Below are positions 1,328 to 57,968 of a stretch of DNA of 64,000 nucleotides, piece by piece. This stretch comes from a virus. The notes below the pieces were generated by a model that did no database searches, had not been told where the DNA came from, and saw only the letters and a program-made list of their open reading frames with translations. Position 1 is the stretch's first letter. Each line of letters opens with the position of its first letter. The position numbers were made by a program, and so were the translations under genes. The stretch lies in IMG/VR virus record IMGVR_UViG_3300023491_000002. One strand, written 5' to 3'.

Positions 1328-4270
1328 ATGGCAATTAGATTAAAATATGCAGATCTTACATATGTTTCAATACCTGATGCAAAACAATTAGATTTAAGTT
1401 CTTTGCGTTCTTTTGGACAAGCTTTTACAGCTACTGCTGATAATCTGCAAGAACGTGCTATTCGTAATGAAAACGCATATAATGAAATGGCTATTAAGAT
1501 GTCTGAATATAATGCGATTCAAGGTGCAGATGAAGAAGCTCTTGCAGGTAAAATTAATGAAACTCAAGAACACATTAAAGTTAAAGTTGATGAAGATGGA
1601 GGATGGTTCTTTGCTGATACAGCTGTTAGCGATGGTGCTCGTAGATTTTTAACTGATGAAGGAGTTAAAACTATTCTTGGTAATAAAACTCAATTTGATG
1701 CTATGATGCAAGCTAATGAACAATCTGACGCTTCAGAAGAATATAAAGCATTAAATAGAGCTATGATTCTTAAACGGTTTAATGATGCAGGAGGTAGTTT
1801 AGGAGGTAATGGTAAACAATCTATTAGTTCTTTTGGTACAGCTCTTGGTTCAGGTCATGATAGAGAAGCTTTACGTAAAGAAATGCTTGAATACTTTAAA
1901 GCTATGAAATCTGATGAAAAAGTTATTTATAGTGAACAATTCCGTAAACAAGCTATAGATTTAATGAATAATCCTACAATTGATGCTGTTACTAAATCTA
2001 CTCTAAAAACTTTATCTAATCCTACTCTTCATGGATTTCAAAGTTTTACTAAAACTATCGAAGGTATAGGAGATGATAGATTAATAAATGTTGCTAAAGC
2101 CATTGTATCTAACAATAGTAAATTTAAAAATGCTTTATTAAAAGAAGCAGAATTAAATCTATTTGCTCTAGAACAAAAAGGTATTACACCTAGTAATGCT
2201 GTAAAAGACAATATATATTCTACAGCTTTTACTGATTCTAATATTTTAAAAACTTTAGTAATAAATTCTCCTGAATATAAAAATGCTAATAGTAATGAAA
2301 AGATTGTATTGCTTAATGCTATAAACAATCCTAATAGTATTTATATAAAAGAATTAATAGATAGAAATTATAGCTTTTTAAATCAAAATCCTAATGAAAC
2401 TGAATCTGATTATGAAGCTAGATTATCTAATTTTTATAAAGCTAATTATATAGATTCTGAAATATCTAATGTGGCTACTTATTTATTGCCTATGAGATAT
2501 ACTAAAGAGAAACTTGATGTAGATAATAAATTCTTTGAAAGTCTATTTAATAAGCAACTAGAAAAGTCTGAAGATACTTCTAAAATACTTACTAGAGAAA
2601 GAGATGGTTTAGTTGGAACAATAGTTAATCTTCCTAGTATGACTTCTGAACTAGAAGCAAATCGTAAAACAAGATTACTTAATCAAACTTCTCAACATTC
2701 AAGAAATATATCTGAATTAGAAAGATTTAATAACTATTTAGCTAAAAAGTCTACTAATGGAGAAAATATAACTAAAGAAGATGAAGATAAATTAAAAGCT
2801 CTTAACCTTAGAGTTCAAGAATCTCAAAGTATAATCAATAACATTCTTTCTGAATATGATGCTTATAAAGGTGGTATTCCAACAAATAAAGAAGATAAAG
2901 CAAATTTAAGCTTAGCACTTCAAAAGAGTATTAAAGAATATTATGATGTATTTAATCGTGTTGGAATTTTTGGAAGTTTAACTAATGTTATCAATGAAGA
3001 AACTTCTAACTTAGATGAAAATGGAAATCCTATTAAAGGTACAGGCGTTGATCTTAGAGATGATGTTAAATTTAATGCAAATGATAAAACTCAGAAACAT
3101 ATAGATGAATATCTTCATATAAAAGATATAAGTTATATATTAAGTAATTCAGATACTCCAGAGGAAGGTATTAAAAAAGCCACAAAGTTTATAAAAAATA
3201 GTAGCAAAACTAATCCTTATGTAAAAGAGTTTGCAGATAATATATCTAAAACATTTGGGGATATTAGTACTGGATTAACTTCTATTCTAATGGGTAATCT
3301 GATTGAAAACTATGGTAATGAAACTAATATGATTCAGTCTAATCCTGGAGTTGTTATTGGTATATCCAAACCTACAGAAACAGGTATTGTAAGTACTGTT
3401 AGAAATAATATAGCTTATAAAATTGAAAATCATCCTGAAGCATTTACTATTATTGATAATCAATTGTTAGATGATGATGATTTAGAGTTAGATGCTGAAT
3501 CCGTTGGTGTTCCTATAGATTTGAATAATGAATCTCTTAGGAAATTCTTATATACTGAAGATAAAGGTACAGATAAGAACCCTAAATATTCTAAATCAGA
3601 TATTACTTATGAACTTATGGAATTGAGTGATGGTCGTAAAGCACTTAATCTTATAAAGAATGTTCAAGGTTTTAATAATGTTAGACAGAAACTCACTATT
3701 GTTGCGAATAATGATGCTGATCAGAATACTATAGATGAATTTGAATTAGCTATGCGTATGACTTCTGCATTCGATATGGCTGATAGACCTAATGCTGATA
3801 CAAAATTTATATTTGATGCTATGTCTACACATCATGGTGGAAGTTTAACTTTTGGTCCAGATCCTTCCAATGCTATTCAAATGAATGATGCTTCTGCATA
3901 TAATATTGTTGAATATAATGGAAGATATTATAATAATGTTAAGTCGTTATTAAATGCTTTTGTTAAAAATCCTATAACAAATGTAGATAAAACTATATAT
4001 CATAATAATTTTAGAATTACATTTAGTAAAGATTCAAATAATAATTTTACTACTCAAATTGATACGTATGATAGTACAACAAATTCATTTGAGCTTACAG
4101 ATAAATTTATAAGTGATAATTCTGAAGACTTTATTAATAATACACAACGTAGATTAAGCGTTATATCATCTATATTAGATTATAAAGATGCTTATAGATT
4201 AACTAAAGAACAATTAGATAATCTTACTAAGTTTAATGCTAATATGTCTACAGCTAATTTTAATTATTGA
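1328..4270 (+). CDS. Hypothetical large virion protein (980 aa), no recognisable catalytic motif
   Basis: ATG at 1328 preceded by a hairpin terminator. Uninterrupted 980-codon ORF ending TGA. Same strand and immediately upstream of the giant ORFs. Confidence 0.8.
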   Translation: MAIRLKYADLTYVSIPDAKQLDLSSLRSFGQAFTATADNLQERAIRNENAYNEMAIKMSEYNAIQGADEEALAGKINETQEHIKVKVDEDGGWFFADTAVSDGARRFLTDEGVKTILGNKTQFDAMMQANEQSDASEEYKALNRAMILKRFNDAGGSLGGNGKQSISSFGTALGSGHDREALRKEMLEYFKAMKSDEKVIYSEQFRKQAIDLMNNPTIDAVTKSTLKTLSNPTLHGFQSFTKTIEGIGDDRLINVAKAIVSNNSKFKNALLKEAELNLFALEQKGITPSNAVKDNIYSTAFTDSNILKTLVINSPEYKNANSNEKIVLLNAINNPNSIYIKELIDRNYSFLNQNPNETESDYEARLSNFYKANYIDSEISNVATYLLPMRYTKEKLDVDNKFFESLFNKQLEKSEDTSKILTRERDGLVGTIVNLPSMTSELEANRKTRLLNQTSQHSRNISELERFNNYLAKKSTNGENITKEDEDKLKALNLRVQESQSIINNILSEYDAYKGGIPTNKEDKANLSLALQKSIKEYYDVFNRVGIFGSLTNVINEETSNLDENGNPIKGTGVDLRDDVKFNANDKTQKHIDEYLHIKDISYILSNSDTPEEGIKKATKFIKNSSKTNPYVKEFADNISKTFGDISTGLTSILMGNLIENYGNETNMIQSNPGVVIGISKPTETGIVSTVRNNIAYKIENHPEAFTIIDNQLLDDDDLELDAESVGVPIDLNNESLRKFLYTEDKGTDKNPKYSKSDITYELMELSDGRKALNLIKNVQGFNNVRQKLTIVANNDADQNTIDEFELAMRMTSAFDMADRPNADTKFIFDAMSTHHGGSLTFGPDPSNAIQMNDASAYNIVEYNGRYYNNVKSLLNAFVKNPITNVDKTIYHNNFRITFSKDSNNNFTTQIDTYDSTTNSFELTDKFISDNSEDFINNTQRRLSVISSILDYKDAYRLTKEQLDNLTKFNANMSTANFNY

Positions 4271-4274
4271 TATT

Positions 4275-7200
4275 ATGCCTATTGATTTTGATAAATTAGA
4301 AAGCATACAAAGAAAATCTACTTATGCCCCTAAAGATAAGTATAAAAGATCTTCTTTTAATCCTAATGCTTATAGTATAGATAATAAATTACTACTCAAT
4401 TTAAGAAAACATTCTGGAAATAGTCAAAATATAGTTCCCGGTAATGTTAATGCTTATATTGAAGCTAGAGCTAGAAATCAATCTACTTGGGATCGTATTG
4501 GTAACTCTCTTGTTCAAACTGTTGGAGAAATAATTGGTGGTACAATTGAAAGTGCAGGTTCTATACTTGCACTTCCCTCTAAACTCATAGATAGTGATGA
4601 AGCTTATACTCGTAATTTTTTAGAAAGACTAGGTAATTCCATTAATGAAGGTACTAGAGAAGCATTTCCTATTTATATGACTGAACAAGCTCAAACGGGT
4701 AATTTATTAGATCGCATGAAAGGTGGTGGTTATTGGGCTTCAATAGTTCCATCTATTTTAGGTAGTGCTGCTAGTATAATGCTTCCAGCTCGTGGAGCTT
4801 CGTTATTATTAGGTAAAGCTTTTAGAAGTGCTGTTAATCTAGGAAGTAAATCTAAATATATTAAAGATTTATTTAAGTTGGGTACAAAACTACAAAAAGC
4901 TAAAGCTCTAAACAGAGCTAATAAAATAGCAGATATTTATGGTTCTGCTGTTATAGGACGTATTCTAGATTCATCTCGTGAAGCTTATGGTACTTATGAA
5001 CAAGAACGTGAATGGTTTCTTAATAATTATAAGAACTATGTTGAACGTGATGAAAATGGTAATGCTATTCTTAAAGCTCCGGGATTAGAAGAAGTTCCTC
5101 TAAATGATACTAATATTGAAAGTATTGCTGATAGATATGCAGATAATGCAGCTTCTAAAGGTTATTGGAGATCTATGTCTAATATAGCTTATGACGTAGT
5201 TGAATGGATGAATATCTTAGGTACTGCTAAAACTCTTACTAAAGCTACTAGAGATAACATTCGTAAAGCTATGGCAACTGGTGATAAATTTGCTATAGTT
5301 CGTACATTAAATGCTATACCCAATGCTGATAAAGGTCAAATTCTTAGAGCTATTGGAGGTTTCGCTGGAGGTTCTCTTGCTGAAATGGCAGATGAAATGA
5401 CTATGAGTATTGCGATGCAAGAAGGTACTCATGCAGCTCGTAAAGATTTTGGTTTACTTTCTGATACTGACGCTCTTACTGATTTTAGCATGAGAGTTAG
5501 TAGTTATCTTAAAGATCCTGATATTTGGACTGAAGGTATTGGAGGTCTTTTAGGTGGTGCTGGTATGCAAGCAATAATGCCATTTATTGAAACTAAGATC
5601 AATAAACGTGGTATTGAAAGAGAACATGAATATCTTAAAGGTATTGAACGTGCTACAGAAGCTATGCGTTCAGGTCTTGATGGTATTGTTGAATCTCTTG
5701 CAGAAGGTGATATTGTTGGTGCTAAACTGAAAGAACAAGAAGCTATTCTTAATCAAGTTGCAGCTAATAGTCTTGATGGTTCACTTGAGTTCTATAAAGA
5801 GATGCTTAGAAATATGAGTGCTTCTCTTAAAGAAATTCAATCTATTAAATATAGAAAAGATAGAGGTGAAGCTATTAGTGCCGAAGAACAAATTGCACTT
5901 GATAAAGGTGAATCTTTACTTGCAAATGCTGATTACTTTGAACAGACTCTTAATAAGATTGAAGCTGTTGAAGATATTTACAATAAACATTTCGATGCAG
6001 TCAATGGCACTACCGACAAAAATCTCTATGAATATCAACGTCGTATTGCTACTCTTGAAGCTCAAAAAAGACTTAATGAACTAGAACTCGAAGCTATTAC
6101 AGCTAATCCTGCTGAATATCAAAAGCGTGCTGCTGAATCTAAAGAGTATCTTAGTAATTATGTTGATTCTAAATATACAGACGATAATATTCGTATAGCT
6201 AAGAAAGCTGATATAAATACTTATGCTGAAAATAATGCAACTCTTGAAGATGCTAAAGCTGCATTAAGTGTTTACGATAAAATGATTGCTAGTCTTAAGA
6301 AACAAATAAGTGAACTTGAAAATGCAATCACTAATGCTCCTAAAGATGCTACTGCTGAACAATTATTAGGTCTTAAAATAGCTCTTAAAGGTGCTAATAG
6401 TAAACTTGAATCTTACAATAAAACTCTTAGTGATATTAGTAATATTCGAGATACAGCGACTAAAAACATTGAAGCTCTTAATTTAAATAAAGATGATAAA
6501 GAGGCGGCTCAACAAGCTAGAACTCTTTTATCTAATCTTACTAATCCGGAAGAAGCTAAACGATTCTATGAAAATAGAAGAACTGCTATTGATGCTGAAC
6601 TTGATTATTATCGTAATGGTAATGGATTTGAAGATATTAAAGATCAAATAAAATTATATGAAGATGAAATCAAAGCTTCTACTGATAAAGATCTAACTGA
6701 TGAACTTAATACGTATCAAACTTCTGAAGCTTTACAAGCAGATGAATCAAAGTTCTCTAATTCAGACACAAGAAAAGCCGTATATAATGCCCGTCTTGCT
6801 AGACTGCAAAAACAAGAATCTGACACTAAAGCTGCTAATGCTCGTAGAGAAGCTGCACTCAAAGCAGAACAAGAACGTCAAGTGAGACAACAAAAAGAAC
6901 GTGATGCGCTTGCAACAGAAGAAGATTCAAATGCTGCACCGATAGGTAGTGGTACATTCGGTAGATCTTATAGAGAATTTGAAGGTGTTAAACCTTTATC
7001 CAATGAAGCTTCTAGTCTCTATAATGCACTTATGTCTGAATCTCAAGTTACAGATTCACCTCTTGCTAACGTTATTGAGAATAGACGTAAAAGCAAATCT
7101 CTTACTTCTAAAGATGCAATGCTTCTTGAAGAAATTAAAGAATTCAATGATGCTACTAATAGAGCTTTAGATAATTCATTTGATACTCTTACGACTACAA

Positions 7201-10200
7201 ATCTTAAATGGATTGTTACTCGTATTGCTGCTAAATACTCTATATTCGATAATATATTCTTTGGTCGTAGATTCAATTGGATTGACGCTGTTACTAAAAC
7301 AGAAGTTGAATATGCACCTAGCATAAATAATGGTGATCTTAGTGCTGAACTTAATAGTTATTTGTGGCATCTTAGTCGTTATACTGCTCAAGTTCTTGAA
7401 CAAAGTGGTAGACCTCTGCCTAGTTTCTTAGCTGATGTTCACTTCGGTTTAAGTGAGACTACAAAGAGTGATATTAATGCTCTTACTAACAAAATTATGC
7501 AGGAAGCTAAGAGTATGCAAATTAAATTTGATATTATCAATAATACTATAGAAGATAATTTAGGTCGTAAGAATTCTAAATATGCTTTATATGTATCTAT
7601 TGGTGGTGTTGAATATAGAGTGCTTAATACTCCGAATCCTCGTAAAGATGTTGGTATTGTTATTGAAGGTTTTGAGAATCAACTTAATCGTTATGTGCTT
7701 ACTCCCGCTAATATGGCAACTCCTAACGATGATTATATTCTCATTGCTAGACAAACACAAAGCTCCGCTCCTGACCAGTCCTTGCCTCCTACCGGGGGCT
7801 ACAAAGCTCAACAGAGTTCCACTGATGAAACTATTACTCCTAAAACTGAGATTACAGAGACTGTTTCTAGTGCTAATGGTATTACTACTGAATTTGTAAG
7901 TGATGAAAGTTCTACTAATACCGATGATGCGCCAATCGAGTTTGTAACGGCTTCAAATCAGCCCCTTATAGACTTCAAAATAGAGGGTATTGATACTAAA
8001 TCCATGCTTGAATTTTTAATGTCTCTAATGAGCCAAGAAGGGGTAAATTTGGCACTATTTGACACGGATTTGATAAACGCTTTAGTGCTGATTCCAAAGC
8101 TACTTAGAAACACTAAAGTTGGTAGTAAGTATGCTTCTGATGCTTATATTAAAGCCCTAATGAATAAGTACTTTACAGACGCTAAACTTACTGGTGTTGA
8201 AACTAAGATTATTGAAACTGCTAAGAAAGTCGCAGCTGCTGTTAGTATTAACATTGACGAAGGTGGAAATTCAATTCGACTAAATACTGCTGAAAATTGT
8301 CGTAATGCTATCAATGCTCTTGATAATCTTAAGAGTTTATATAAAGATGAATCTAAATGGTTATCAGATATGCAATCTCTTACAGATGCTCTGAATACTG
8401 TTTATGAATCTGATCTTGTTGCTAAGTTTGCACAAGTTCTTACTCAATCTAAAGATTATAATTCTAATGCTATTGCCATACGTCTTGATGAAACGCTTCA
8501 TAACAAATTTGCTATGATTGCTCAAGACTTAGGTGGTATCTTTGTTGATAATCTTAATCTCTTTGGTACACTTGTTGCTTTTATTAGTGATAGAAGTGGT
8601 TTTAGAATTAATAAGATTAACTATTATGATCTTGTTAATGGTATGCGTGAATATCGTGGTGATAACTACAAAGAACTCATACCCGAAATCATGTCTATTA
8701 TGAATATTACTAATTATCTTCATAATGAATTTAAGAATAGACGTGATTACTATAGTGCTAGATTTGCAGTAACTAAAGATGCTACTTATAAAGAGCTTTA
8801 TAATAATTATAGTTTCTTTTATGATCTTATAGATGTTGCTCCTACTAATGGTTTACCTTTAACAGAAGCTCAAGTTCTTGATTTTATTAATCGTACACCT
8901 GAGATTAAAGGTAAAACATATCATGAAGGTCTAGATATTAACTTTAGTCCTAACGGTGCTCCTGAGAATATTCTAGGTAATAGTACTGCTACTAACTTAG
9001 GTATTTATGAGTTACTTGATGGTATTAAAGAAGGTGATGAGGTTACTGTAGTTCAAACTGATTTAGAAGAAAATCCTAATAGAGCTTCTTATGATGTTGT
9101 AATGAATCGTAATGGTAAAGAGTATAAATTAGGTTCTATTCCTAAACTCGAAACTATTACAAATGGTATAGCGTATACAATTCAAGGTGCGAATGGTGTG
9201 TATTATCCACGTAAATTTGCATTTACTGATGATATGGCTAAAACCTTTGCTGAATATCAAAGAGAGCTATTTAGATTCATGTATCATTACGATATTGCTT
9301 TTAATCCTCGTAATAATATATCTGCTAAAGACAGAGAGAACTCTGAACGTAACATTGATATTATCTTTGATCAGTTTAGAAAAGATCGCTTTAAGAAGCT
9401 AATGGATACACTTAAAGAACTTGTGTATTCTAATCTTACATATAAGCAGATTAAAGATATTATGAATAGCCAGACAATGATCGGGGTTGTTGATTCTGAA
9501 TATACAGGTGATACTGACGGTGAAATTTCTATTGATAATGTAGCTCTTTCATTTAATCAAATATATCAAATTTGTACTGATTTATTTCCTGCTTCTAGGA
9601 TTAATCATTCAAATATGGATAGTATTATGAATGCTACGGCTATTACGAAACATTTCAATGACGCTGTTAATCGTCATGAAATGATCTTCCGTAATAATCA
9701 AGCTATTCGTAATGATATTCGCTTTACAGGTTCTAATACTTTTAGAATAAGTCATATTAGTGCTGGTAGAATACTAATTAATGATGAAGCTCGCAACGAA
9801 GATCATGAGGCTAAACATGGATTACCTATTATGCATCATCGTAATTCTTTATTAGATTCTATTAAGCCTACTAAAGATGTTCTTGATTCTAAAGGTAAAC
9901 CTAGAGTTCAAATACTAGCTATTGATGAGAATGGTGTTGGTAAAGATCCTAAAACTGGTGGTATTGTTCAGAATATAGATAAGTTTGCAACACCTCATGT
10001 AGCTGATACTTTTATTGGTAATAGACGTCATGAAGTTGTTGTTATACCTCAAACTGATTCACTTAATACTGTATTCCCTATATATCCTAATACTATTATG
10101 GGTTCTATCACCGATGAAACAGAAGAAGCTCGTATTAGTAAATTAGGTAAATATACAAAATATATTGGTGATGCTATTAAAGAAATTCTTGCTCTTAATA

Positions 10201-26138: not shown

Positions 26139-26164
26139 GGACTTCTGTTGGACTTAAAAAAATG

Positions 26165-26208
26165 AGAGAGGGCTTTCAGATAATACTGTCAGTCCTCTCT
26201 CTTCTTGT
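26165..26208 (+). terminator. Rho-independent terminator after the giant gene
   Basis: GAGAGAGGGCT ... AGTCCTCTCTC (11-bp stem with one mismatch) followed by TTCTTG. Confidence 0.5.
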
Positions 26209-26236
26209 ATCTATACTACTCATACTCCTGCTCGTG

Positions 26237-26294
26237 TCATTGCAAACGCTCCGCCCCGTTCCACATCTATCCCTCTACCGGGGTCTGCAATGCT
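26237..26294 (-). repeat. Interspersed GC-rich mini-element, copy J (variant CCCCGGTAGAGGG)
   Basis: Reverse complement reads CATTGCAGACCCCGGTAGAGGGATAGATGTGGAACGGGGCGGAGCGTTTGCAATG. It forms an inverted pair with copy A about 200 bp away. Confidence 0.75.
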
Positions 26295-26487
26295 CCACAA
26301 TGCCATTTTTGCCACCTGCGGGCTTCATATATTGATTATCTATTGGCAGACGATAACTAGTTCATATTATAAAAGAAAGTGTCTCTATGAGGCTCTATTG
26401 AAGTTATCATTATCAAACATTTGCATTATTATCACGGCTTATGATAACGATGCAATTTAATTATAATCATAGTAGCATTAGTAACAC

Positions 26488-26545
26488 TTTCCAGACCCCA
26501 GTAGGGAACATGGTGTGGTCAGGAGCGGAACTAAGCATAGCACTT
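26488..26545 (+). repeat. Interspersed GC-rich mini-element, copy A
   Basis: TTTCCAGACCCCAGTAGGGAACATGGTGTGGTCAGGAGCGGAACTAAGCATAGCAC. The 3' flank CTAAGCATAG forms a 10-bp inverted repeat with 26555-26564. Confidence 0.85.
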
Positions 26546-26569
26546 GTAACAGCACTATGCTTAGAAGTA

Positions 26570-34789: not shown

Positions 34790-35825
34790 TTACGATCTCA
34801 TTTAAATACATATTAGCAAACTTTTTCTTAACGAAGTTGTAATCTGTAATACGAACTAAATCTGTAGGATCTTTAGCACTATAACCTTTAGTCATGAACA
34901 AAGCAATAAAGCTATAATTCTTTTCATATTCGATAGCGGAAGTAAGACCAGTATTATCAGTGTCAAGCATAACATAAACTTGAATCCTAGTAGTCTTTCG
35001 TAAAACATCAACAATATCATCAGGAAGTTTAGCAGTTTCACTTGCAATCACATAAACTCCAACATCATTAATTCTCAACTCTCTCAGTATTCGTAACATC
35101 AATAGTTTATCCTTTTGAGACTTAACAATCAACTTATAATTAGTATCAATTAAAGTCTCAAGATTTTCAAGAGGACACTTATTATTAGTAATGAAACGAT
35201 TAGCAGTATGCTTATTTCTAAATGGAAAATAGAGTTTAATATAACCATCATTAACTTGATATTCATAACAAGGATCATGACGAGTATAATAATATGGATT
35301 ACTAACACCATCAATCTTAAAAGATTCAACAGCTTTCACGTATTTATCTACGAGATCATTAGTAACACCAAATTGATTATAATACCTATAATCATAAAAA
35401 GTCATTTTACGATTTACAGTTGTAATAACACGAAATTCATTATTGATAATCTTATTCTGAGCTTGATATACACGATTAACATAAGGTGAATCATTAAGAA
35501 CATCAGAAGCATATTCGATGATATTAGAACATATTTCAACGAAGTCTTTATTGTTAGTACAATTTTTTTTAAGAACTAGACCAACAATTTCAAATACATC
35601 ACCACGATAACGATAATCAGCAAAATCACGAAATATCAGCTTATTACCATACCATTTAAAACTAACTGAAGGATTAGGATCATAACGAAGAGGATTAGAG
35701 ATTTTATAATTGCGTAAACAAATACAATTATTTATCTCTGTTTCAGGAACATTAAGAAAGACAGAATAAATATGTACTTGATCAAGTGTATTCAAAATAT
35801 AATCCTTATCACTTGTACTCCACAT
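34761..35825 (-). CDS. Toprim-domain primase-like protein (about 354 aa)
   Basis: C-terminal VYVIASE ... VYVMLDTDNTG gives a Toprim E...DxD arrangement. The ORF track extends to 35921, but that N-terminal extension runs into a terminator and repeat copy B. The first plausible Met is at 35825. Confidence 0.4.
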   Translation of the reverse strand: MWSTSDKDYILNTLDQVHIYSVFLNVPETEINNCICLRNYKISNPLRYDPNPSVSFKWYGNKLIFRDFADYRYRGDVFEIVGLVLKKNCTNNKDFVEICSNIIEYASDVLNDSPYVNRVYQAQNKIINNEFRVITTVNRKMTFYDYRYYNQFGVTNDLVDKYVKAVESFKIDGVSNPYYYTRHDPCYEYQVNDGYIKLYFPFRNKHTANRFITNNKCPLENLETLIDTNYKLIVKSQKDKLLMLRILRELRINDVGVYVIASETAKLPDDIVDVLRKTTRIQVYVMLDTDNTGLTSAIEYEKNYSFIALFMTKGYSAKDPTDLVRITDYNFVKKKFANMYLNEIVNGKKGGVVP

Positions 35826-35843
35826 ATTTACATCTTTTGTAAC

Positions 35844-35897
35844 ATTTGCAATCCCCAGTAGGGAACAAGGTGAGGTCACGTGCGGAGCGTTAGCAAC
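35844..35897 (+). repeat. Interspersed GC-rich mini-element, copy B
   Basis: TTTGCAATCCCCAGTAGGGAACAAGGTGAGGTCACGTGCGGAGCGTTAGCAAC. Intergenic, between a terminator and the primase-like gene. Confidence 0.85.
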
Positions 35898-35920
35898 ACT
35901 ATGCACAAAACCAATAGACA

Positions 35921-40666: not shown

Positions 40667-42994
40667 TCAATCAAACAAGTTATTACTATTATTGTTAATA
40701 CCACGACGTTCACCTTTACCTGTTTTACCATTACCATAAAGAATCTTATAGGCTTCATTAATATAAAAACCATAATTAAGATTATAATCTTCTTTATATT
40801 CGTAATCATTAAACAAAGCCACTCTCTGATTAGCAACAAGCGACTTCTCTTCTTCAACAACTATTCCACTAATATCATCACCATACGCTATATTATCAGA
40901 ATCAGGAACAATAGCTTTTGTTATAGCACCTCCACCACTTTTACAAATATAAAAACGATTATGCTTTTGACACTTAATATAAACAGGTTTACCATCTCTA
41001 ACTGTCTTATAAATTGTAGTATATTTACCAGCAACTTTCTGACTAAAACAGTAATCATAAATGGCAGTACGAGAAGTATTGATATAATTTCTAATAAATT
41101 CAGTAATATCAACACCATAAAGGAAATATTCTTTAAGAGCTTTCTTAACAACAGGATAAACAAAACCTTTATTATATTCAGGGTCTTGAAGAAAATAACC
41201 TTTAAACTTAATAAATTTATCTTCAATAGCTTGACGTGTGGTGTAAGTATTACTTTTAGAATCAATCCATACACCACAACGATTATATTCTTGTAAAGCA
41301 TCATAGAAACCATATCCAACAGCAATATAATCATTAACAGCACTTCTACAATACTTCTCAAACTTTTCAGTTTCAAGATCTAATTTACTATAAACACTCC
41401 ATTCATTACAGATATGTTTAAACACATCTTGACGATTAAGAGGTAATCTAACAAGTAGACCATCTGTATTTGCAGATAACACATCAAAGTTATTCAACTC
41501 AAATGCTTCTATCAAACCACATAGTAATAATTGCAGATTAATAGTTACAGTATAAGTGCATTCGGGATCATATAGATAATCCATAGCATCATTAAGAGCA
41601 CCATAAATTCTATTGATCACAATCTTAAGAGCATCAGCTTCTAACTTTCTTCCAGTATGTTTAGCTTCAACACGAGTTTCACGTAACCATTTAACAATGC
41701 CAATAAAGACTTCTTTAGATAAATGATGAGGTGCAACACCATATTCAATAATAAAACTAGGATACATTGAAGTAACATCAGGGTCAGCAAGAATCTCACC
41801 AGATTCAGCCCAAATGACACGAGGATCATCTTTACTATGAAGACCTCCTTTTGCCATCGTATAGCCCTTATCATAAGAAAGAAATTCTAAGGATTGAAAG
41901 CTCTTTCTCCATGTAGTAACAACGATTCCATTAACAATAGACTCACGTTTAAGTTCACTTTGCTTAGGACTACCAAGACCAATATAAATACTATATCTCT
42001 GAATAGATTCAAGAATCTTCCTATAAAAAGAAGTCTTAAATTGAATACTATCTTTGACAACTTTACCAATAGGCACAGCACTACGCTCAGTTCTAAGATC
42101 AACAAATTCATAAGAAGGCATACCTGACCATTCAGAATAGAACTTAGTCATTAGATTTTTACCAATAGAACTACGAGACATATTACGTAAATCAATAGCA
42201 TACATCTCACTTAGCTTAGCACGAAGATCTAATTCCTTTTGTTGATTCTTAACAAGAGCATCAGTACCAAGAACATCATTAATATTATAATCTGTTACAA
42301 GTGCTATCTCATCACGTTTGATACGATAACTCCAATGAATAGGTAAGTCTTGAATACGATACCATTTCAGAACTATCATAACAGCTTTAAGAGCAACAAA
42401 TGTAGCATCAAGATATAGAATCTTTTGAATATCAAAATCAGTAAAAGGACGGAAATATCTACGACCTTTATAAAAATCAAGAAGTCTACGATACGTTTTA
42501 CCACCCATATCCTTATCAACAGCTTTCTGAGAATGCTCAAATAGAAATTCAGTTATATGTTGCTTTCTACCATAAGTATCTTCACGAAGACCAGTCTTCC
42601 AATCAAATGTAGGAGCATAATGAATAAATATATCAAGCATGGTCATATCATAGTTAAAACTATTATAACCAATGATAATTTTATGAGATTTAAAAAACAT
42701 ATAAAGACCTTCAATACCACTACTAATATTATTAGAATCATCCCATGAAGTAGGTGTCATATTCTGACGTTCAAATTTATCTTCATGATAAGCTCTATAA
42801 ATAATAAAAGTCTTAGCACCTATAGCTTCAAGAATAAGACGTTTATCTTCTTTATTCTTAGCTATATCAGCAGCAATGTATAAATCAATAATATCTTGAG
42901 GAACACCATAAGGAATGAAGCTAACCTCAAACATATTAATGTAACACTCAATATCATATATCCAACTAGTAGTTGGTGACTTATTAGCAGCCAT
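40667..42994 (-). CDS. polB: Family B DNA polymerase with 3'-5' exonuclease domain (775 aa)
   Basis: Exo I is YDIECY, Exo II is NSFNYDMTML, motif A is DPDVTSMYPS (DxxSLYPS), motif B is KIVINRIYGAL (Kx3NSxYG), motif C region is LSANTDGLLV. Confidence 0.85.
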   Translation of the reverse strand: MAANKSPTTSWIYDIECYINMFEVSFIPYGVPQDIIDLYIAADIAKNKEDKRLILEAIGAKTFIIYRAYHEDKFERQNMTPTSWDDSNNISSGIEGLYMFFKSHKIIIGYNSFNYDMTMLDIFIHYAPTFDWKTGLREDTYGRKQHITEFLFEHSQKAVDKDMGGKTYRRLLDFYKGRRYFRPFTDFDIQKILYLDATFVALKAVMIVLKWYRIQDLPIHWSYRIKRDEIALVTDYNINDVLGTDALVKNQQKELDLRAKLSEMYAIDLRNMSRSSIGKNLMTKFYSEWSGMPSYEFVDLRTERSAVPIGKVVKDSIQFKTSFYRKILESIQRYSIYIGLGSPKQSELKRESIVNGIVVTTWRKSFQSLEFLSYDKGYTMAKGGLHSKDDPRVIWAESGEILADPDVTSMYPSFIIEYGVAPHHLSKEVFIGIVKWLRETRVEAKHTGRKLEADALKIVINRIYGALNDAMDYLYDPECTYTVTINLQLLLCGLIEAFELNNFDVLSANTDGLLVRLPLNRQDVFKHICNEWSVYSKLDLETEKFEKYCRSAVNDYIAVGYGFYDALQEYNRCGVWIDSKSNTYTTRQAIEDKFIKFKGYFLQDPEYNKGFVYPVVKKALKEYFLYGVDITEFIRNYINTSRTAIYDYCFSQKVAGKYTTIYKTVRDGKPVYIKCQKHNRFYICKSGGGAITKAIVPDSDNIAYGDDISGIVVEEEKSLVANQRVALFNDYEYKEDYNLNYGFYINEAYKILYGNGKTGKGERRGINNNSNNLFD

Positions 42995-43591
42995 TTATTT
43001 TAAAATAACCCATTGATTAACAAATTTACGATAAGCAATAACAGCAGTATCATATGCACGATCGAGATAACTATAGTCGTTATTCTTACGCATATATTCA
43101 AGACTCATAGTATAAATATGTATCTTACCATTAGGAAGCACATCAATACCTTCTCCACCTTTAGGAAAAGCTTTACCTCCACTAATAATAAAATACGGAT
43201 CTTTACCATAAGTTATGAACATACTAGGTTCAACTCTAGCAATCTCTCTTTGAAGTCTAGGAAAACATTCAGCAATAGCTTTCGCATTAATAGTCTGAGA
43301 TGTACCACATTTGACAACAGAAGTAATATACGATAAAGCAAGTAATTTCTTATCTTCAAGAATACGTCTAATGAATTTACCTGTGTTACCACTAAGTACG
43401 TATTTAGTCTTTCTATCAGCAGGACTAGGAGCAGCAACTAAATGTAGGATAGTTCCGCTCCCTTCCAGTCCTTGTCCCCTACTGGGGATTAGAGAGTTCC
43501 GCACACATAGATCACACTTATCACAATAATCATCTTCACGTAATTCATCAGACGTATCTTCAAACATATTAGAAAATCTCGTTTGCATCAA
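42995..43591 (-). CDS. Family-4 uracil-DNA glycosylase-like protein (198 aa) with degenerate catalytic motif; contains in-frame copy C of the interspersed GC-rich repeat
   Basis: CDKCDLC is the Fe-S CxxCxLC pattern of UDG4. ILHLVAAPSPADRKTKYVLSGNTGKFIRRIL aligns with [31 protein letters not shown], but GEAPG has become VAAPSP. Confidence 0.5.
   Translation of the reverse strand: MMQTRFSNMFEDTSDELREDDYCDKCDLCVRNSLIPSRGQGLEGSGTILHLVAAPSPADRKTKYVLSGNTGKFIRRILEDKKLLALSYITSVVKCGTSQTINAKAIAECFPRLQREIARVEPSMFITYGKDPYFIISGGKAFPKGGEGIDVLPNGKIHIYTMSLEYMRKNNDYSYLDRAYDTAVIAYRKFVNQWVILK
43445..43503 (-). repeat. Interspersed GC-rich mini-element, copy C, in-frame sense copy inside the UDG-like CDS
   Basis: Reverse complement reads GGAACTCTCTAATCCCCAGTAGGGGACAAGGACTGGAAGGGAGCGGAACTATCC. 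It encodes NSLIPSRGQGLEGSGT. Confidence 0.85.
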
Positions 43592-43833
43592 TAATTACTT
43601 TTAGCAGCAATTTGTTCAAACAAACTACGTTGCATAAAGACAGTATGAAAAGATTCAGCATCTCTAAAAATCTTAACATCATATCCTTTTACATCACAAT
43701 CATATTCGGTAGAATCAAACGAATACTTTTCACAATAAGCACCAAACGAAATAGGAGAAGCTTCAACAAGAACATCATCAATCATGTATTCAGCTTCACC
43801 TAACGCTTTATATTCTTCATCAGTTAATGCCAT
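43588..43833 (-). CDS. Hypothetical protein (about 81 aa)
   Basis: The ORF track extends to 43911 through repeat copy D. A start at MALTDEEY (43833) is more plausible. Confidence 0.4.
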   Translation of the reverse strand: MALTDEEYKALGEAEYMIDDVLVEASPISFGAYCEKYSFDSTEYDCDVKGYDVKIFRDAESFHTVFMQRSLFEQIAAKSNY

Positions 43834-43854
43834 ATCAATAACATTTAGTAAAAC

Positions 43855-43908
43855 TTTGCAAACCCCAGTAGGGATGAAGAAGTGGTAGGGAGCGGAGCAT
43901 CTGCAACT
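43855..43908 (+). repeat. Interspersed GC-rich mini-element, copy D
   Basis: TTTGCAAACCCCAGTAGGGATGAAGAAGTGGTAGGGAGCGGAGCATCTGCAAC. Confidence 0.85.
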
Positions 43909-44135
43909 CAACGAGTATTCTTAGCACAATAACCGATAACATCATGCATGATATTATGAATAACAGCTTCAACACTATTATTTGTTTCATCATAAATATC
44001 AACATCCAAATCAGGATTGATAGCTTTAATCGCTCGTTTCGTATTAGCCAATACCTCTTCACCATCTTGAACTGTATTAAGTTCATATTGACAAAGAGTA
44101 TTTCCATTAGACATTGTAACTTTAACTATAACCAT
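43908..44135 (-). CDS. Hypothetical protein (75 aa)
   Basis: ORF. Confidence 0.4.
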   Translation of the reverse strand: MVIVKVTMSNGNTLCQYELNTVQDGEEVLANTKRAIKAINPDLDVDIYDETNNSVEAVIHNIMHDVIGYCAKNTR

Positions 44136-44147
44136 AATATAATTAGA

Positions 44148-45192: not shown

Positions 45193-46662
45193 TTATAATT
45201 TTAGATAAGCGTGTTTAGTAGCTCTACTCATAGCTACATAAAGAAGTCTAAGAGCTTCAGCAGAGTTACGTCTAATACGCTTACCCCACTTAGTTTGAAA
45301 ATAGATAATATCATCAAGATCAATACAAACATTTTCAAAGGTAGAACCTTGGCTCTTATGTGCGGTTATACCATAACCATAATCAATATCTTTAACAACA
45401 AGTCTATTCTTGTTAGCAGCATTGAGTCTATAGTCGGTCATAGTAAGATGAATATCCTTAAATCTAAAGTATCTAAACCATCTACTACGATCAGTACCAG
45501 TAAGAGCTTTATAATGAATTGCATTTAGCATAGCACCGAAATTATCCATGTTATTAGAATCCCAAAAATCAATGATCTTAAACATAGGAGTAACTTTACC
45601 ATCAAATGCAGACCTCAATGTAATACAATAACAAGCAAGACCATTATCTGCTACATAATACCGAACATCATGAACAACATAATCTTCACTATTAATAATA
45701 ATGGGGGATTTGTATTCATCAAATACAGTACGATATGCAGTAAACATATCATCTTTCGTTATCATACCTTGAGGATTATTCAGAACACCATCACGAATAA
45801 AAGTATTCCAAAATCCAATACAATCATTAGTAAAAGCAATAAGTCTAACATAATTAATATCCTTACTAAAGTTATCAGAACTAAACATTTCAATAACCTT
45901 ATTGCGGAAATTAAGTTTATTCATAATAGTAAAACCTTCACCTTGAGTATTAATAGCTTCACGAGTTTGAAGAATATACTGATAGAAATTAGCAGTACCA
46001 TTAATCAAATCAGAGCGAATAATACCAAACAGTTCAAGCAAAGGATTACCAGCTTCTTGTCTAACAATTTGAGTTAAACGAAATTGAACATCAGTATGAG
46101 TAAAAGAAGGACTAATACGATTATAAGTATCTTCTTCACCTTTTCCTTTAGCAACAACATAAGGAATCTGAAGTTCATCTCCTAAGAATAGGAGTTTACA
46201 TCGACACTGAATAGCCGTCTTTATGAGTAGATTAAACAGACCAGGATTAATCATAGAACACTCATCAATAATGACAAGTCTATAACCTCTCATTTTCTGT
46301 TCACCTATAACCTTAAAAGAAGGATTCTCAATGTTATAATCTTCAATATCTACATCAGGTCTAAGACCACATAGAGATTGAATAGTCATACCTTTCTTAC
46401 CGGAACTATTTTCAAGAACTCGAAGAGCTTTATGAGTTGGAGCTGTAACACAAACCTTTTCAACTATCAAATAACGTACAAGATGACGCATGATAAAAGT
46501 TTTACCAGTACCGGCATAACCACTAAGAGTAAAACTTATGGATTGTGATTGCCACCATTGCCAAATAACATTAATAGCATCTTCTTGTTGTTCTTTAAAA
46601 TAAGAAACATTAATACGTTTGGCAGACCTAAGTAGCGCATCTTTATTAAAATCAGAACTCAT
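45193..46662 (-). CDS. SF1B Dda/RecD/Pif1-like DNA helicase (489 aa)
   Basis: Walker A is GYAGTGKTF, Walker B is LVIIDECSMI, motif V/VI is TAHKSQGSTFENV. Confidence 0.8.
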   Translation of the reverse strand: MSSDFNKDALLRSAKRINVSYFKEQQEDAINVIWQWWQSQSISFTLSGYAGTGKTFIMRHLVRYLIVEKVCVTAPTHKALRVLENSSGKKGMTIQSLCGLRPDVDIEDYNIENPSFKVIGEQKMRGYRLVIIDECSMINPGLFNLLIKTAIQCRCKLLFLGDELQIPYVVAKGKGEEDTYNRISPSFTHTDVQFRLTQIVRQEAGNPLLELFGIIRSDLINGTANFYQYILQTREAINTQGEGFTIMNKLNFRNKVIEMFSSDNFSKDINYVRLIAFTNDCIGFWNTFIRDGVLNNPQGMITKDDMFTAYRTVFDEYKSPIIINSEDYVVHDVRYYVADNGLACYCITLRSAFDGKVTPMFKIIDFWDSNNMDNFGAMLNAIHYKALTGTDRSRWFRYFRFKDIHLTMTDYRLNAANKNRLVVKDIDYGYGITAHKSQGSTFENVCIDLDDIIYFQTKWGKRIRRNSAEALRLLYVAMSRATKHAYLKL

Positions 46663-49318: not shown

Positions 49319-49354
49319 AATATATACTTTAGTATTAGCATCACTCCACGTAGC

Positions 49355-49410
49355 ATTTCCAGACCCCAGTAGGGAGATAGGACTGGAACGGGGCGGAACT
49401 TAGAGCATAC
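49355..49410 (+). repeat. Interspersed GC-rich mini-element, copy E
   Basis: TTTCCAGACCCCAGTAGGGAGATAGGACTGGAACGGGGCGGAACTTAGAGCATAC. The 3' flank overlaps the stop codon of the 49400..49810 gene. Confidence 0.85.
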
Positions 49411-49810
49411 CTTTAAAATCAATAGTAACTACTTTATCATCTTTAACAGAATGAAGAATACAATAATCAAGTTCATTAATCGTACAATCAAAAGTATCTG
49501 CAACAGCTTTAGGTAGTGTTTCAATTGCGGCTTCCCATCCGCCTTCAACAATTGAAAAGATACCACCTTTAGCACCACGAGATAGTGCAAATACACCTTG
49601 TCCTTTGAATCTCTCAATAGTACCTCTGTTATTCATAACAGTATATCCACAATCTAGGCAATTACCCATAACATTGCTAGGACCGGCACTAAACTTATAC
49701 TTACCACAACAAGGACAAACTTGAGTAATACAATGATCACGTTCTCTAGTAACAATGAGATTATTTTGAATACTCTCAAAAGCTTTTTCTATATCCATTC
49801 TGTATAACAA
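49400..49810 (-). CDS. Zn-ribbon protein (136 aa)
   Basis: CPCCGK...CLDCG pairs. The stop codon lies within the 3' flank of repeat copy E. Confidence 0.5.
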   Translation of the reverse strand: MLYRMDIEKAFESIQNNLIVTRERDHCITQVCPCCGKYKFSAGPSNVMGNCLDCGYTVMNNRGTIERFKGQGVFALSRGAKGGIFSIVEGGWEAAIETLPKAVADTFDCTINELDYCILHSVKDDKVVTIDFKGML

Positions 49811-50367
49811 TCACAAGGTTTACAACGAGTATATTTATTAGGAGTATTCCATTCTACAGAATCATATTGAATATAATCAGTATCAGGGTACATCTTTTCA
49901 ATAGCAGCTCTCGTCGAAATATCAGTTCCATAAATGCGAACATATTTATTTCTAAGTCTTGTAGAACATGGAAATGTAAAATAGAAATTACCTTTATCAC
50001 TTTCATGAACTTCAGAAACTTCTTTATGTGCATCTTCAAATCCACATATATCTGCAATATTAAGTCCAAGTTTTTGCCAATGCTCTTTCTTATCATCAAA
50101 TATCTCTTGAAATATACGAGAATTATTATTTGAATTAAGAATTTCATCAACATCTTTAACTTTAAGTCGTAAATCAGCAATCTTAGCCTTATCTCTGAAT
50201 ACTTTAGCATCTTCAATTGCTTTCTCAACTTTAGTAATAAAATACTGTGATTTAACATTAGTAAAACCTTTATTAAATATTGCAGGATTGAAATAAATAC
50301 AAACTAGACAACGAGGGTTATTACCCCTACGCTGTCTAGATTCGCAATTACTGCATTCACCACTCAT
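49789..50367 (-). CDS. Cys-rich hypothetical protein (192 aa)
   Basis: CSNCESRQ...CLVC at the N-terminus and CKPCDC at the C-terminus. Confidence 0.5.
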   Translation of the reverse strand: MSGECSNCESRQRRGNNPRCLVCIYFNPAIFNKGFTNVKSQYFITKVEKAIEDAKVFRDKAKIADLRLKVKDVDEILNSNNNSRIFQEIFDDKKEHWQKLGLNIADICGFEDAHKEVSEVHESDKGNFYFTFPCSTRLRNKYVRIYGTDISTRAAIEKMYPDTDYIQYDSVEWNTPNKYTRCKPCDCYTEWI

Positions 50368-52784: not shown

Positions 52785-52942
52785 AATGGTAATGCTGAAT
52801 GAATTATTAAATTATTTACGATGTTTCTCTCGATACTCCAATATTAATGGAGGTACAATTGCTAAAAATATGAATACTAATGCTCCTACTATTTCTTCTG
52901 TTGTAAAATAATCTTCCATTTCTAAAGTTATTACTATAGGGA

Positions 52943-52992
52943 TGCTAAATGCTGCTCCTTCCAGTCCTTGTTCCCTATTGGGGATTGGAAAG
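52943..52992 (-). repeat. Interspersed GC-rich mini-element, copy F (CCCCAATAGGG variant)
   Basis: Reverse complement reads TTTCCAATCCCCAATAGGGAACAAGGACTGGAAGGAGCAGCATTTAGCATC. Confidence 0.8.
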
Positions 52993-52994
52993 CT

Positions 52995-53246
52995 CTACTG
53001 ATTGTTAAAAGTCTTTACGAATATCTTCTTTGATTCTCTTGATATTACAAGTTTATGAATAATTGGATATTCTTTTACACTTATTCTTGCGAATTTACAA
53101 AAATCTTTGATTTTATTTCTTACTTTATCTGATGCTACTTTTATTTCTATTGTTTCATCTGATACTACACATTCGGTATCTTTGTGACACTGTATTTCCA
53201 TTGTCACATTATACCTCGTACATACTACAGTTAATCTTATAATCAT
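52995..53246 (-). CDS. Small protein (83 aa), possibly related to the tandem paralog family
   Basis: IEIKVASDKVRNKIKDF resembles the paralog pattern. Confidence 0.4.
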   Translation of the reverse strand: MIIRLTVVCTRYNVTMEIQCHKDTECVVSDETIEIKVASDKVRNKIKDFCKFARISVKEYPIIHKLVISRESKKIFVKTFNNQ

Positions 53247-57073: not shown

Positions 57074-57090
57074 TCCTCATGAATCATTGA

Positions 57091-57146
57091 CGGGGGCATT
57101 CCCCCAAGCATTACAAGGGGGGTGCTGTCGTATAAGGAGGTCCCCG
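57091..57146. promoter_or_regulatory. GC-rich hairpin cluster at the edge of the divergent non-coding region: GGGGG-CATT-CCCCC (57092-57105), G6 run (57116-57121), GGAGGTCCCCG
   Basis: Extreme local GC content in an AT-rich genome, immediately upstream (minus strand) of the gene starting at 57073. Confidence 0.5.
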
Positions 57147-57152
57147 TAAATA

Positions 57153-57800
57153 GCCTCTCACAATCGATATAAAGTCAAGCAACAGAGTCACTAAAAGTCT
57201 TAGAATTAATAATTGTAATAACAATAGAAAATGTTTTAGAATTTGCAATAAAAGAATCATGAGAATAAGCCATACAATAGAGCTAATAGAAGTCTTAGAA
57301 TTATCGTCACTAAAATCAATAGAAACTCCATAAGAATCAAAATTAAAAATTGCATTACTAAAAGCCTTAAAATAACCAATAATAAAATCCAGAGAATATC
57401 CGCAATAAATTGTAATAGAATAGGTTCCTGCACACAAACTCTCATAATCGGTATAAAGTCGAACAACAGTGTCATTAAAGCCAATAGAAAATTGAATAGT
57501 AATAGTGTTAGAAAATGCTTTAGAATTAATAATAGAAGATTGGTAAAGACGAGCCTATGTAATAGAAATTGCAAAATGAATTAAATTAGCTGCCCTGCTT
57601 ATATCCAAAGTTCCTTAAGCAATTGCAATATCAAAAGAATTAGAATAAGCACTTAAATCGCTCTGTGTACAAATCCGAATATTAGAACTTGCAATGTGAA
57701 TTAAATAAGAAGCCTTACTTATATTCAAAGTAATTTGAGTAATACTAAAAGTATACTTAATATAATCGGCATTAGCTTTAAAATTAATTAGAGTAACATT
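57153..57800. repeat. Degenerate tandem (iteron-like) repeats with a period of about 283 bp, at least 2.5 copies, containing roughly 120-bp sub-repeats and many ATTGCAAT/TTTGCAAT motifs
   Basis: CTCTCACAATCGATATAAAGTCAAGCAACAGAGTCACTAAAAG at 57153 aligns with CTCTCATAATCGGTATAAAGTCGAACAACAGTGTCATTAAAG at 57436. ATTGCAAAATGAATTAAATTAGC at 57568 aligns with CTTGCAATGTGAATTAAATAAGA at 57688. Confidence 0.7.
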
Positions 57801-57968
57801 AAGACAATCAGCATAAGCATTATCAAAATTCAGTGTATAATTTGCCAAAAATGTAAGCCGAAATGTGGTAACGTTGATTCTATTACAAATAATATTACAA
57901 GTAATATCAGAGTTACTCTAAGTAGTAATAGTATTAATACTACCGGTATTTATAATAACTTTGATGAG

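Follow-up and report, generated by a model that had tools for sequence, protein, structure and literature searches.

The 64,000-nt stretch of DNA analyzed here (IMG/VR record IMGVR_UViG_3300023491_000002; hereafter, the window) comes from the genome of a crAss-like phage. It contains 11 copies of a GC-rich repeat of ~50-65 bp, one of which (7758-7809, minus strand) lies in antisense orientation within a giant polyvalent gene. This copy is real, in frame and ancient, and its nucleotides and rare codons are conserved. As the best explanation, to which we assign a probability of about 0.45, we propose that the repeat is an ancient, lineage-specific, cis-acting DNA signal. It would mark gene and module boundaries, would be translated where it occurs in open reading frames (ORFs) and would serve as a junction for module exchange.

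The Copy in the Giant Gene and Its Orthologues

The core 14-mer of this copy, CCCCCGGTAGGAGG (7785-7798, minus strand), occurs only once in the window, with 0.01 occurrences expected by chance. The match to the repeat family extends over 7748-7825. An annotation made from the sequence alone (the first-pass annotation) had noticed an antisense variant copy that does not interrupt the 2877-aa ORF at 4236-12869. It is a true family copy and its frame is open: the ORF reads it without a stop codon as QSSAPDQSLPPTGGYKAQ, a Ser/Pro/Gly-rich linker that is located at a poorly conserved junction between modules. For the 200-aa segment around the linker, AlphaFold returned a low-confidence model (mean predicted local distance difference test score 39.7) in which no secondary structure is predicted.

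The giant gene carries a second copy (11786) in the opposite orientation. Both copies occur in unchanged order and orientation in 18 IMG/VR loci that cover this part of the gene and in 26 loci that cover the whole gene. Distant orthologues were sought by an exhaustive scan of a representative protein library (1.84 billion sequences). Two were found, P0035 (locus L140) and P0038 (locus L141), with whole-protein identities of 46% and 40%, respectively. The linker peptide is kept in both (NAAPDLSYSPTGDQKAP in P0035 and SSAPDLTSSSTGGSKAT in P0038). L140 and L141 also retain the nucleotide element at both giant-gene sites in unchanged orientation (nhmmer E 4e-13 to 4e-11, with a profile built solely from the copies in the window). 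Among the IMG/VR loci and the distant orthologues, none was found that lacks the 7758 copy. The segment is thus not an indel, a possibility that the first-pass annotation had raised, nor a recent, tolerated insertion, as every recovered orthologue has it with an intact nucleotide element, even where protein identity is only 40%. Since all orthologues carry the copy, there is no "empty" orthologue in which to look for the same linker without the element, which had been suggested as a check. In the comparison to L141, the 7758 copy stands out as a conserved island within rapidly evolving sequence, with an amino acid identity of 0.62 (flanks: 0.23 and 0.25) and a nucleotide identity of 0.75 (flanks: 0.47 and 0.44).

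Constraint on the DNA and on the Encoded Peptides

The codons provided by the element are rare in this genome (relative usage: TCC 0.03, GAC 0.09, ACC 0.04, GGG 0.02, GGC 0.05). Its GAC and GGG codons are identical in all three deep lineages (the window, L140 and L141). In codon typicality, the three in-gene copies of the window (7758, 11786 and 43448) fall within the lowest 0.01-0.3% of 15,448 sixteen-codon windows from 28 ORFs. The giant-gene sites in L140 and L141 rank 7th to 45th among ~2600 windows for codon atypicality.

The third in-gene copy (43448) is contained in the gene at 42995-43588, which codes for a protein similar to uracil-DNA glycosylase (UDG; PF03167). The element-encoded residues R30, N31, S32, P35, R37, G38, G40 and G45 are invariant in an alignment of 14 homologues, down to 55% identity, and the DNA underlying these residues still corresponds to the element in distant genomes. 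The residues encoded by the element are thus the most invariant ones of the UDG-like protein. Rare GC-rich codons are kept over deep divergence and the UDG residues are invariant; therefore, the DNA sequence constrains the protein. This contradicts the view that selection has merely filtered harmless insertions, which was one of the explanations considered in the first-pass annotation.

The fixed bases CCCC-AGT-AGG-GG translate to P-S-R-G in frame f1, while the other strand gives P-T-G-G in frame r2. The element is read in frame r2 in the 7758 copy and in frame f1 in the copies at 11786 and 43448. It is because of the fixed bases that related peptides result within the f1 pair (11786 and 43448) and within the r2 pair (7758 and an extra copy found in a related locus, L136; see below).

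The copy at 58148 (copy H) was said to end with the same YKA in the same relative frame as the 7758 copy. The YKA is shared only by coincidence. In copy H, the TACAAAGC motif from which it results is displaced, being located 10 nt further from the CCTAC-GGGG core, and the reading frame of the core differs between the two copies (PPTGG vs. SLLGS). The related claim that both orientations of the element have an open frame holds insofar as both are used in frame in real genes (r2 at 7758; f1 at 11786 and 43448). It does not hold as a special property of the element. The consensus is open in five of the six frames, yet the actual copies average only 3.09 open frames out of six, with 3.11 for mononucleotide shuffles. 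Frame openness thus follows from GC content and base composition, and there is no sign that the element is designed for in-frame tolerance.

Some further features of the UDG-like protein were noted. Its N-terminal Cys cluster (CDKCDLC) is kept. At the position of the family-4 motif, which is GE(A/G)PG in family-4 UDGs, it has AAPSP. The protein may lack glycosylase activity. The TAA stop codon of its gene directly abuts the ATG of the polymerase gene.

The Repeat Family and Its Distribution

The 11 copies were identified by repeat search and with nhmmer (E 1e-14 to 1e-18). Six are in plus and five in minus orientation (Table 1). The GC content reaches 68% within the repeat islands, vs. 31.7% for the window. 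Alignment of the copies resulted in a set of invariant bases, CCCC..TAG.......G...TGG....G.GCGG, with variable positions between them. Such a spaced pattern fits an element that is recognized by its sequence, with duplex DNA as the simplest form. Seven copies are clearly intergenic, three are within ORFs, and one (58148) is in a divergent region inside a possible ORF of 98 aa. In the following, "r" refers to the pyrimidine-rich and "f" to the purine-rich strand of the element.

The position relative to genes depends on the form found in the mRNA. Intergenic copies with the r form end 6-27 nt upstream of a start codon (35835, 43845 and 49346 in the window, and six cases in L136-L138). Intergenic copies with the f form overlap the stop codon of the upstream gene. 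Gene orientation and GC skew switch at two points, near 26.3 kb and 58.1 kb, and an inverted pair of copies is found at each of them.

All 11 positions are identical in ~40 IMG/VR relatives (74-99% nucleotide identity). The family is also found in relatives with a UDG identity of only 55-62%.

Table 1. Copies of the repeat in the window and the giant gene that contains two of them. Copies are named by position as in the text.
Copy	Position	Strand	Location	Remarks
7758	7748..7825	-	in gene, giant gene	aa ~1175-1192 = SSAPDQSLPPTGGYKAQ; r form in mRNA; kept in all orthologues
11786	11776..11853	+	in gene, second copy in the giant ORF	aa ~2517-2534 = NSLTPDREGAVEGSGT; opposite orientation, f form in mRNA
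26244	26235..26311	-	intergenic, convergent gene junction, left of pair	
26478	26468..26545	+	intergenic, convergent gene junction, right of pair	hairpin 26531-26565 adjoins
35835	35825..35901	+	intergenic	52-nt core ends 9 nt upstream of ATG at 35825; downstream of an intrinsic-terminator-like site (35953-35926)
43448	43439..43514	-	in gene, UDG-like gene (42995-43588)	encodes RNSLIPSRGQGLEGSGT, the most conserved stretch of the protein
43845	43835..43911	+	intergenic	core ends 11 nt upstream of ATG at 43833; edge abutted by a 239-nt small-gene indel (43909-44147)
49346	49331..49413	+	intergenic	between the stop of gene 49400-49810 and ATG 49318 (27 nt downstream of core)
52944	52935..53011	-	intergenic	extends over the stop codon of gene 52995-53246; mRNA has the f form
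57960	57950..58026	+	divergent region, left of pair	at the cumulative GC skew minimum
58148	58139..58215	-	divergent region	copy H of the first-pass annotation; inside a possible 98-aa ORF (58074-58370)
	4236..12869	+	giant polyvalent/cargo gene	2877 aa as listed; C-terminal ART-PolyVal domain

Several observations were made at the two switch points. Between the convergent gene blocks, a hairpin at 26160-26210 is preceded by an A-run and followed by a T-rich stretch; it would serve as a bidirectional terminator. The hairpin that adjoins the 26478 copy is of ~12 bp, and the 182-nt spacer between the paired copies is devoid of a plausible ORF. The divergent region at the GC-skew minimum (~58 kb) has other GC- or purine-rich tracts (57081-57159 and 58455-58530), including ~3 copies of a 25-nt GGAGA(A)AAGGG repeat, and there are diverged direct repeats at 57172-57743. 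This region may be an origin or a control region.

Structural Breakpoints and Gain of Copies

Structural breakpoints are found at the edges of the element. Within contig 110914 (L094 and L102), a 1164-nt module with GNAT and ART domains is inserted at window position 7755/7756, which is inside the outer envelope of the element, ~8 nt beyond the conserved core; the element in L102 resembles a hybrid of two allelic classes. On the opposite side of the same element (7835/7837), a 361-nt module is inserted in L113, L129 and L135. Downstream of the 11786 copy, the sequences from L113-L119 diverge from 11864 onward (a replacement), and the ART module of the window (12008-12794) is missing from most relatives. 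Relatives differ in whether they have the 239-nt small gene that directly adjoins the 43845 copy (43908/44148). Overall, 12 of 149 structural boundaries are at most 15 nt from an element, with 2.8 expected (P=3e-5).

The ART-PolyVal module shifts within the giant protein. It is C-terminal in the window and, in contig 110914, is found together with GNAT before the 7758 element (L102 5193-6356). The ART insert of the window is flanked by a duplicated "..KVL...NLNKNSNLDE" stretch. In L135, the giant gene appears to be split at the element. We do not consider this to be real, as it is due to a 1-nt difference from L113 in a T-run (L135 ~1120) in a Logan assembly, which is most likely an assembly error.

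Copies have also been gained. L136 has an extra in-frame copy (EDVAPVRTYSPTGDYRVTQ, frame r2) inside the orthologue of the window ORF 49789-50367, and this copy is absent from the orthologues in the window, L013 and L137. Presence/absence variation among orthologues is thus seen for this in-gene copy and for none of those at 7758, 11786 and 43448. The intergenic spot taken by the copy in the 49-50 kb neighbourhood differs between the window, L136 and L137, and one intergenic copy of L140 has no counterpart in the window. From the extra L136 copy and the shifting positions in this neighbourhood, it follows that copies are gained and lost over long time scales.

Element Classes Considered

No tRNA or tmRNA was found in the window, and no Rfam covariance model matches at any copy, either at the gathering threshold or at E<=1. 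Single copies do not show a stable fold (z-scores from -1.8 to +1.3). There is no conserved fold on either strand, for which RNAalifold yields only a 3-4 bp helix and no covariation. The unit is not palindromic and has no terminal inverted repeats. Similar-looking ends (GGAGCTTTG...) suggested a target-site duplication, which is, however, not copy-specific: the similarity between a copy's own flanks is 8.0/13, vs. 7.7 between copies (permutation P=0.21). A G-quadruplex pattern occurs in 56% of 75 representative copies vs. 15% of shuffles. This candidate is weak; the pattern is not present in all copies, and a G-quadruplex is part of the minimum-free-energy fold of just 2 of the 75.

The core pattern has four matches in 185,579 species genomes (two in crAss-like 94-kb contigs and two singletons), with ~4 expected by chance, and no copies outside this phage lineage were found in these genomes beyond such chance-level matches. 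A role as a mimic of CRISPR or host repeats was rejected, as there are no arrays among these genomes in a scan for exact pattern matches only. The crAss-like contigs (~94.3 kb), L143 (CAJUAL010000008.1) and L141/L144 (JAAUYS010000080.1), are found within metagenome-assembled genomes with the labels Vampirovibrio sp. and Clostridia bacterium. Their placement there is probably a binning artefact and not evidence for a host.

Site-specific inversion (as in shufflons or Gin/Hin systems) was rejected. Mixed-orientation high-scoring segment pairs do not occur in ~140 related loci, minor subpopulations being invisible in consensus assemblies, and there is no minus-strand ORF of at least 150 aa between 7.8 and 11.8 kb. 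Programmed translational bypass was also dismissed: neither in the window nor in any orthologue does the element interrupt the frame, so that no bypass is needed. Within the repeat, there is no consistent sigma-70-type match to promoter hexamers and no conserved terminator stem-loop. A Bacteroidetes -33/-7 pattern was not seen by eye.

Proposed Function and Alternative Explanations

The element occupies gene boundaries (just upstream of starts, over stops and at the two orientation-switch points) and, inside ORFs, the boundaries of modules. According to the explanation that we prefer, it would act as double-stranded DNA, being recognized by a putative protein, of the phage or of the host, whose role would be regulatory or architectural. 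A site inside an ORF would simply be translated, so that the fixed bases dictate the peptide ("PTG" in r2, "P-S/D/G-R" in f1), which the protein would tolerate owing to the location of the sites in flexible linkers. The shared sequence would, as a secondary effect, provide a homology patch for the insertion, deletion and swapping of modules between related phages, presumably by homologous recombination.

Several points weigh against a boundary signal of this kind. Nine of 12 copies share the same polarity relative to transcription, which may point to a role tied to one strand (promoter or RNA) and away from a DNA site that works in either orientation. Within the close clade, synonymous-site conservation of the in-gene copies is unremarkable (71st and 80th percentile). 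When the whole gene is compared to L140 and L141, they reach only the 69th to 94th percentile. A synonymous or DNA-level signal becomes visible only over deep divergence and from the rarity of the codons. The enrichment of breakpoints is inflated. Only 2 of ~11 clean high-identity events abut an element, and part of the excess is due to BLAST alignments that terminate at conserved elements where the intergenic DNA has diverged. Gene conversion (concerted evolution) could keep the copies alike without selection on each site.

Alternatively, the repeat would be a selfish miniature mobile element, inserting at random and surviving in genes only where the frame is open and the peptide harmless, in line with the filtering of in-gene insertions by selection that the first-pass annotation had considered. 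Copies are indeed dispersed, in both orientations, with three in ORFs and in two different reading frames, and the lineage-specific copy in L136, the variable spots at 49-50 kb and the intergenic copy that L140 has and the window lacks would fit as well. New in-frame copies do arise, if rarely, which upholds the idea of in-gene insertion in general, but the 7758 copy itself is ancient. We consider a selfish element unlikely because positions and orientations are fixed over deep divergence, open frames are not more frequent than in shuffles, and GC-rich rare codons persist in an AT-rich genome. Moreover, terminal inverted repeats, a copy-specific target-site duplication, a palindrome and a stable fold are all lacking, no transposase-like partner was seen, and the 185,579 species genomes contain no copies outside the lineage. 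The r copies just upstream of starts and the polarity bias favour a transcription regulatory cassette (a promoter or activator-binding site), with in-gene copies being internal or antisense promoters and with the shuffling of modules as a by-product. This would be similar to the promoter-early stem-loop (PeSL) cassettes of T4-type phages, which consist of a sigma-70-type early promoter and a terminator hairpin (PMC2839356, PMC4122927) and which are likewise adjoined by small-gene indels. In addition, one copy follows a terminator-like hairpin, and each member of the back-to-back pair in the divergent region faces its gene block. A promoter cassette is nevertheless doubtful. There is no -35/-10 or Bacteroidetes -33/-7 motif at a fixed distance and no stem-loop component, 3 of the 12 copies are antisense to their genes (with two of these conserved inside ORFs), and face-to-face transcription would result from the pair at the convergent junction.

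A signal at the RNA level would also account for polarity. Copies in r and f form on the same transcript might pair over a long range, forming imperfect duplexes for processing (e.g., by RNase III) or for translational control. Along each direction of transcription, every f copy is preceded by one or two r copies (7758 to 11786; 57960 to 52944; 49346 and 43845 to 43448; 35835 and 26478 to 26244), and any r-f pair is ~70-84% complementary over 37-58 nt. However, neighbouring partners are no more complementary than non-partners (78% for I8 vs. 84% for I21 and 83% for I11). Partners are up to 4-5 kb apart, and there is no covariation, consensus structure or Rfam match, which makes RNA pairing quite improbable. 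Even less can be said for a role purely at the protein level, where the peptide would be a linker or protease site of the cargo protein and its resemblance to noncoding repeats incidental. Orthologues with a local identity of 28-36% retain the peptide SAPD..S..TG..KA, which is part of a low-complexity region. The similarity is, however, at the nucleotide level and extends to copies that are noncoding or read in another frame; the same motif results in unrelated peptides in r2 and f1, and identical rare codons are found in three deep lineages. This reading is already largely refuted, and we attribute next to no probability to it. A bolder idea, which we rate as rather improbable, goes beyond the boundary signal that we propose. 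The copies might be directional sites recognized by a phage system dedicated to marking exchangeable cassettes throughout the genome, also inside the giant cargo ORF, or, equivalently, they might represent a genome-architecture code (replication, transcription, packaging). If they are cassette sites, whole protein modules could be swapped in frame between co-infecting phages. If they are an architecture code, this code would be old and strict enough to fix the amino acid sequence of three unrelated proteins.

Comparison to Known Systems

By analogy, the element would work most like PeSL cassettes and lambdoid boundary sequences, and its in-frame translation would resemble that of Rickettsia palindromic elements (RPEs) and mitochondrial GC clusters. 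It lacks the structural features that define each of these systems. With PeSLs, it shares that short conserved repeats are found at phage gene boundaries, are associated with indels or swaps of small genes and provide portable homology for modular shuffling; as with PeSLs, copies are at intergenic positions between ORFs, with indels at the repeats. PeSLs are, however, only intergenic and restricted to hyperplastic regions. The element is GC-rich, has neither a promoter consensus nor a hairpin, is fixed in position, and three of its copies are translated.

Boundary or "linker" sequences of lambdoid phages, reportedly treated by Susskind and Botstein in 1978 in the context of the modular theory and by Clark et al. 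in 2001, are likewise short and conserved and are located at junctions of modules, where mosaic joints accumulate. They do not form one repeated family per genome and are not embedded in giant ORFs. The mobile GC clusters and "byp" elements that occur in the mitochondrial genomes of yeasts, the latter said to have been the subject of a PNAS article by Lang et al. in 2014, are similar in that GC-rich islands of 30-60 nt are dispersed in an AT-rich genome, are sometimes found in coding sequences and are associated with recombination. GC clusters are, however, palindromic and mobile, and byp breaks the frame and is bypassed by the ribosome, whereas the element has an open frame and stable positions. 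Shufflons and Gin/Hin systems have inverted in-frame repeats that flank a segment of a virion-protein gene, which is reminiscent of the inverted pair 7758/11786 (4 kb apart). They differ from the element, for which no inverted arrangement was found in the ~140 loci, no antisense ORF of at least 150 aa exists and no recombinase was seen nearby. RPEs reportedly insert in frame into protein-coding genes (described by Ogata et al. in Science in 2000). Like the element, they are dispersed short repeats, some of which are in frame and add a peptide to a tolerant part of a protein. Unlike the element, which is non-palindromic, ~50 bp long and, at 7758, present in all orthologues with a DNA sequence that seems to be selected, they are palindromic, of ~100-150 bp, and show presence/absence variation among orthologues. 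RPEs and other in-frame insertions resembling miniature inverted-repeat transposable elements have been reviewed (PMC10969869). No description of a crAss repeat element of this kind was found in the literature searched.

Few viruses of the gut are as abundant as crAss-like phages, whose cis-acting signals are little known; the element is a candidate for a genome-wide signal. It also represents a clear case of a DNA motif that imposes protein sequence, namely the "motif" of the UDG-like protein and two linkers in the giant cargo protein. Residues dictated by such an element could be mistaken for functional protein motifs. In addition, the element points to exchange sites of polyvalent cargo modules and thus bears on the diversification of giant proteins.

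The Phage Genome and the Giant Gene

The DNA polymerase of the window has its best match in cr127_1 (uncultured phage), with 38% identity, and crAss_MUZ and CrAss_Ring genes are present on related ~94-kb contigs. No close relatives were found among annotated phage records, either by DNA or by the UDG protein. An alternative genetic code was considered and is not needed, all three stop codons terminating long ORFs.

The 2877-aa giant ORF is followed by an ORF of 4416 aa. Its listed start (ATG 4236) overlaps the end of the previous ORF (4270). This start is probably assigned too far upstream; judging from where the orthologues begin, the likely start is at 4275 (MPIDFDK).

Relatives have clean insertions that are absent from the window. 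These are of ~986-1015 nt inside the DNA polymerase gene (41770-41775), of 985 nt inside the helicase gene (45351-45353), of 615 nt between the UDG-like and polymerase genes (42986-42993) and of 1269 nt at 46178-46179. These insertions look like mobile introns or homing-endonuclease cassettes. In L137, a GIY-YIG gene splits the polymerase region.

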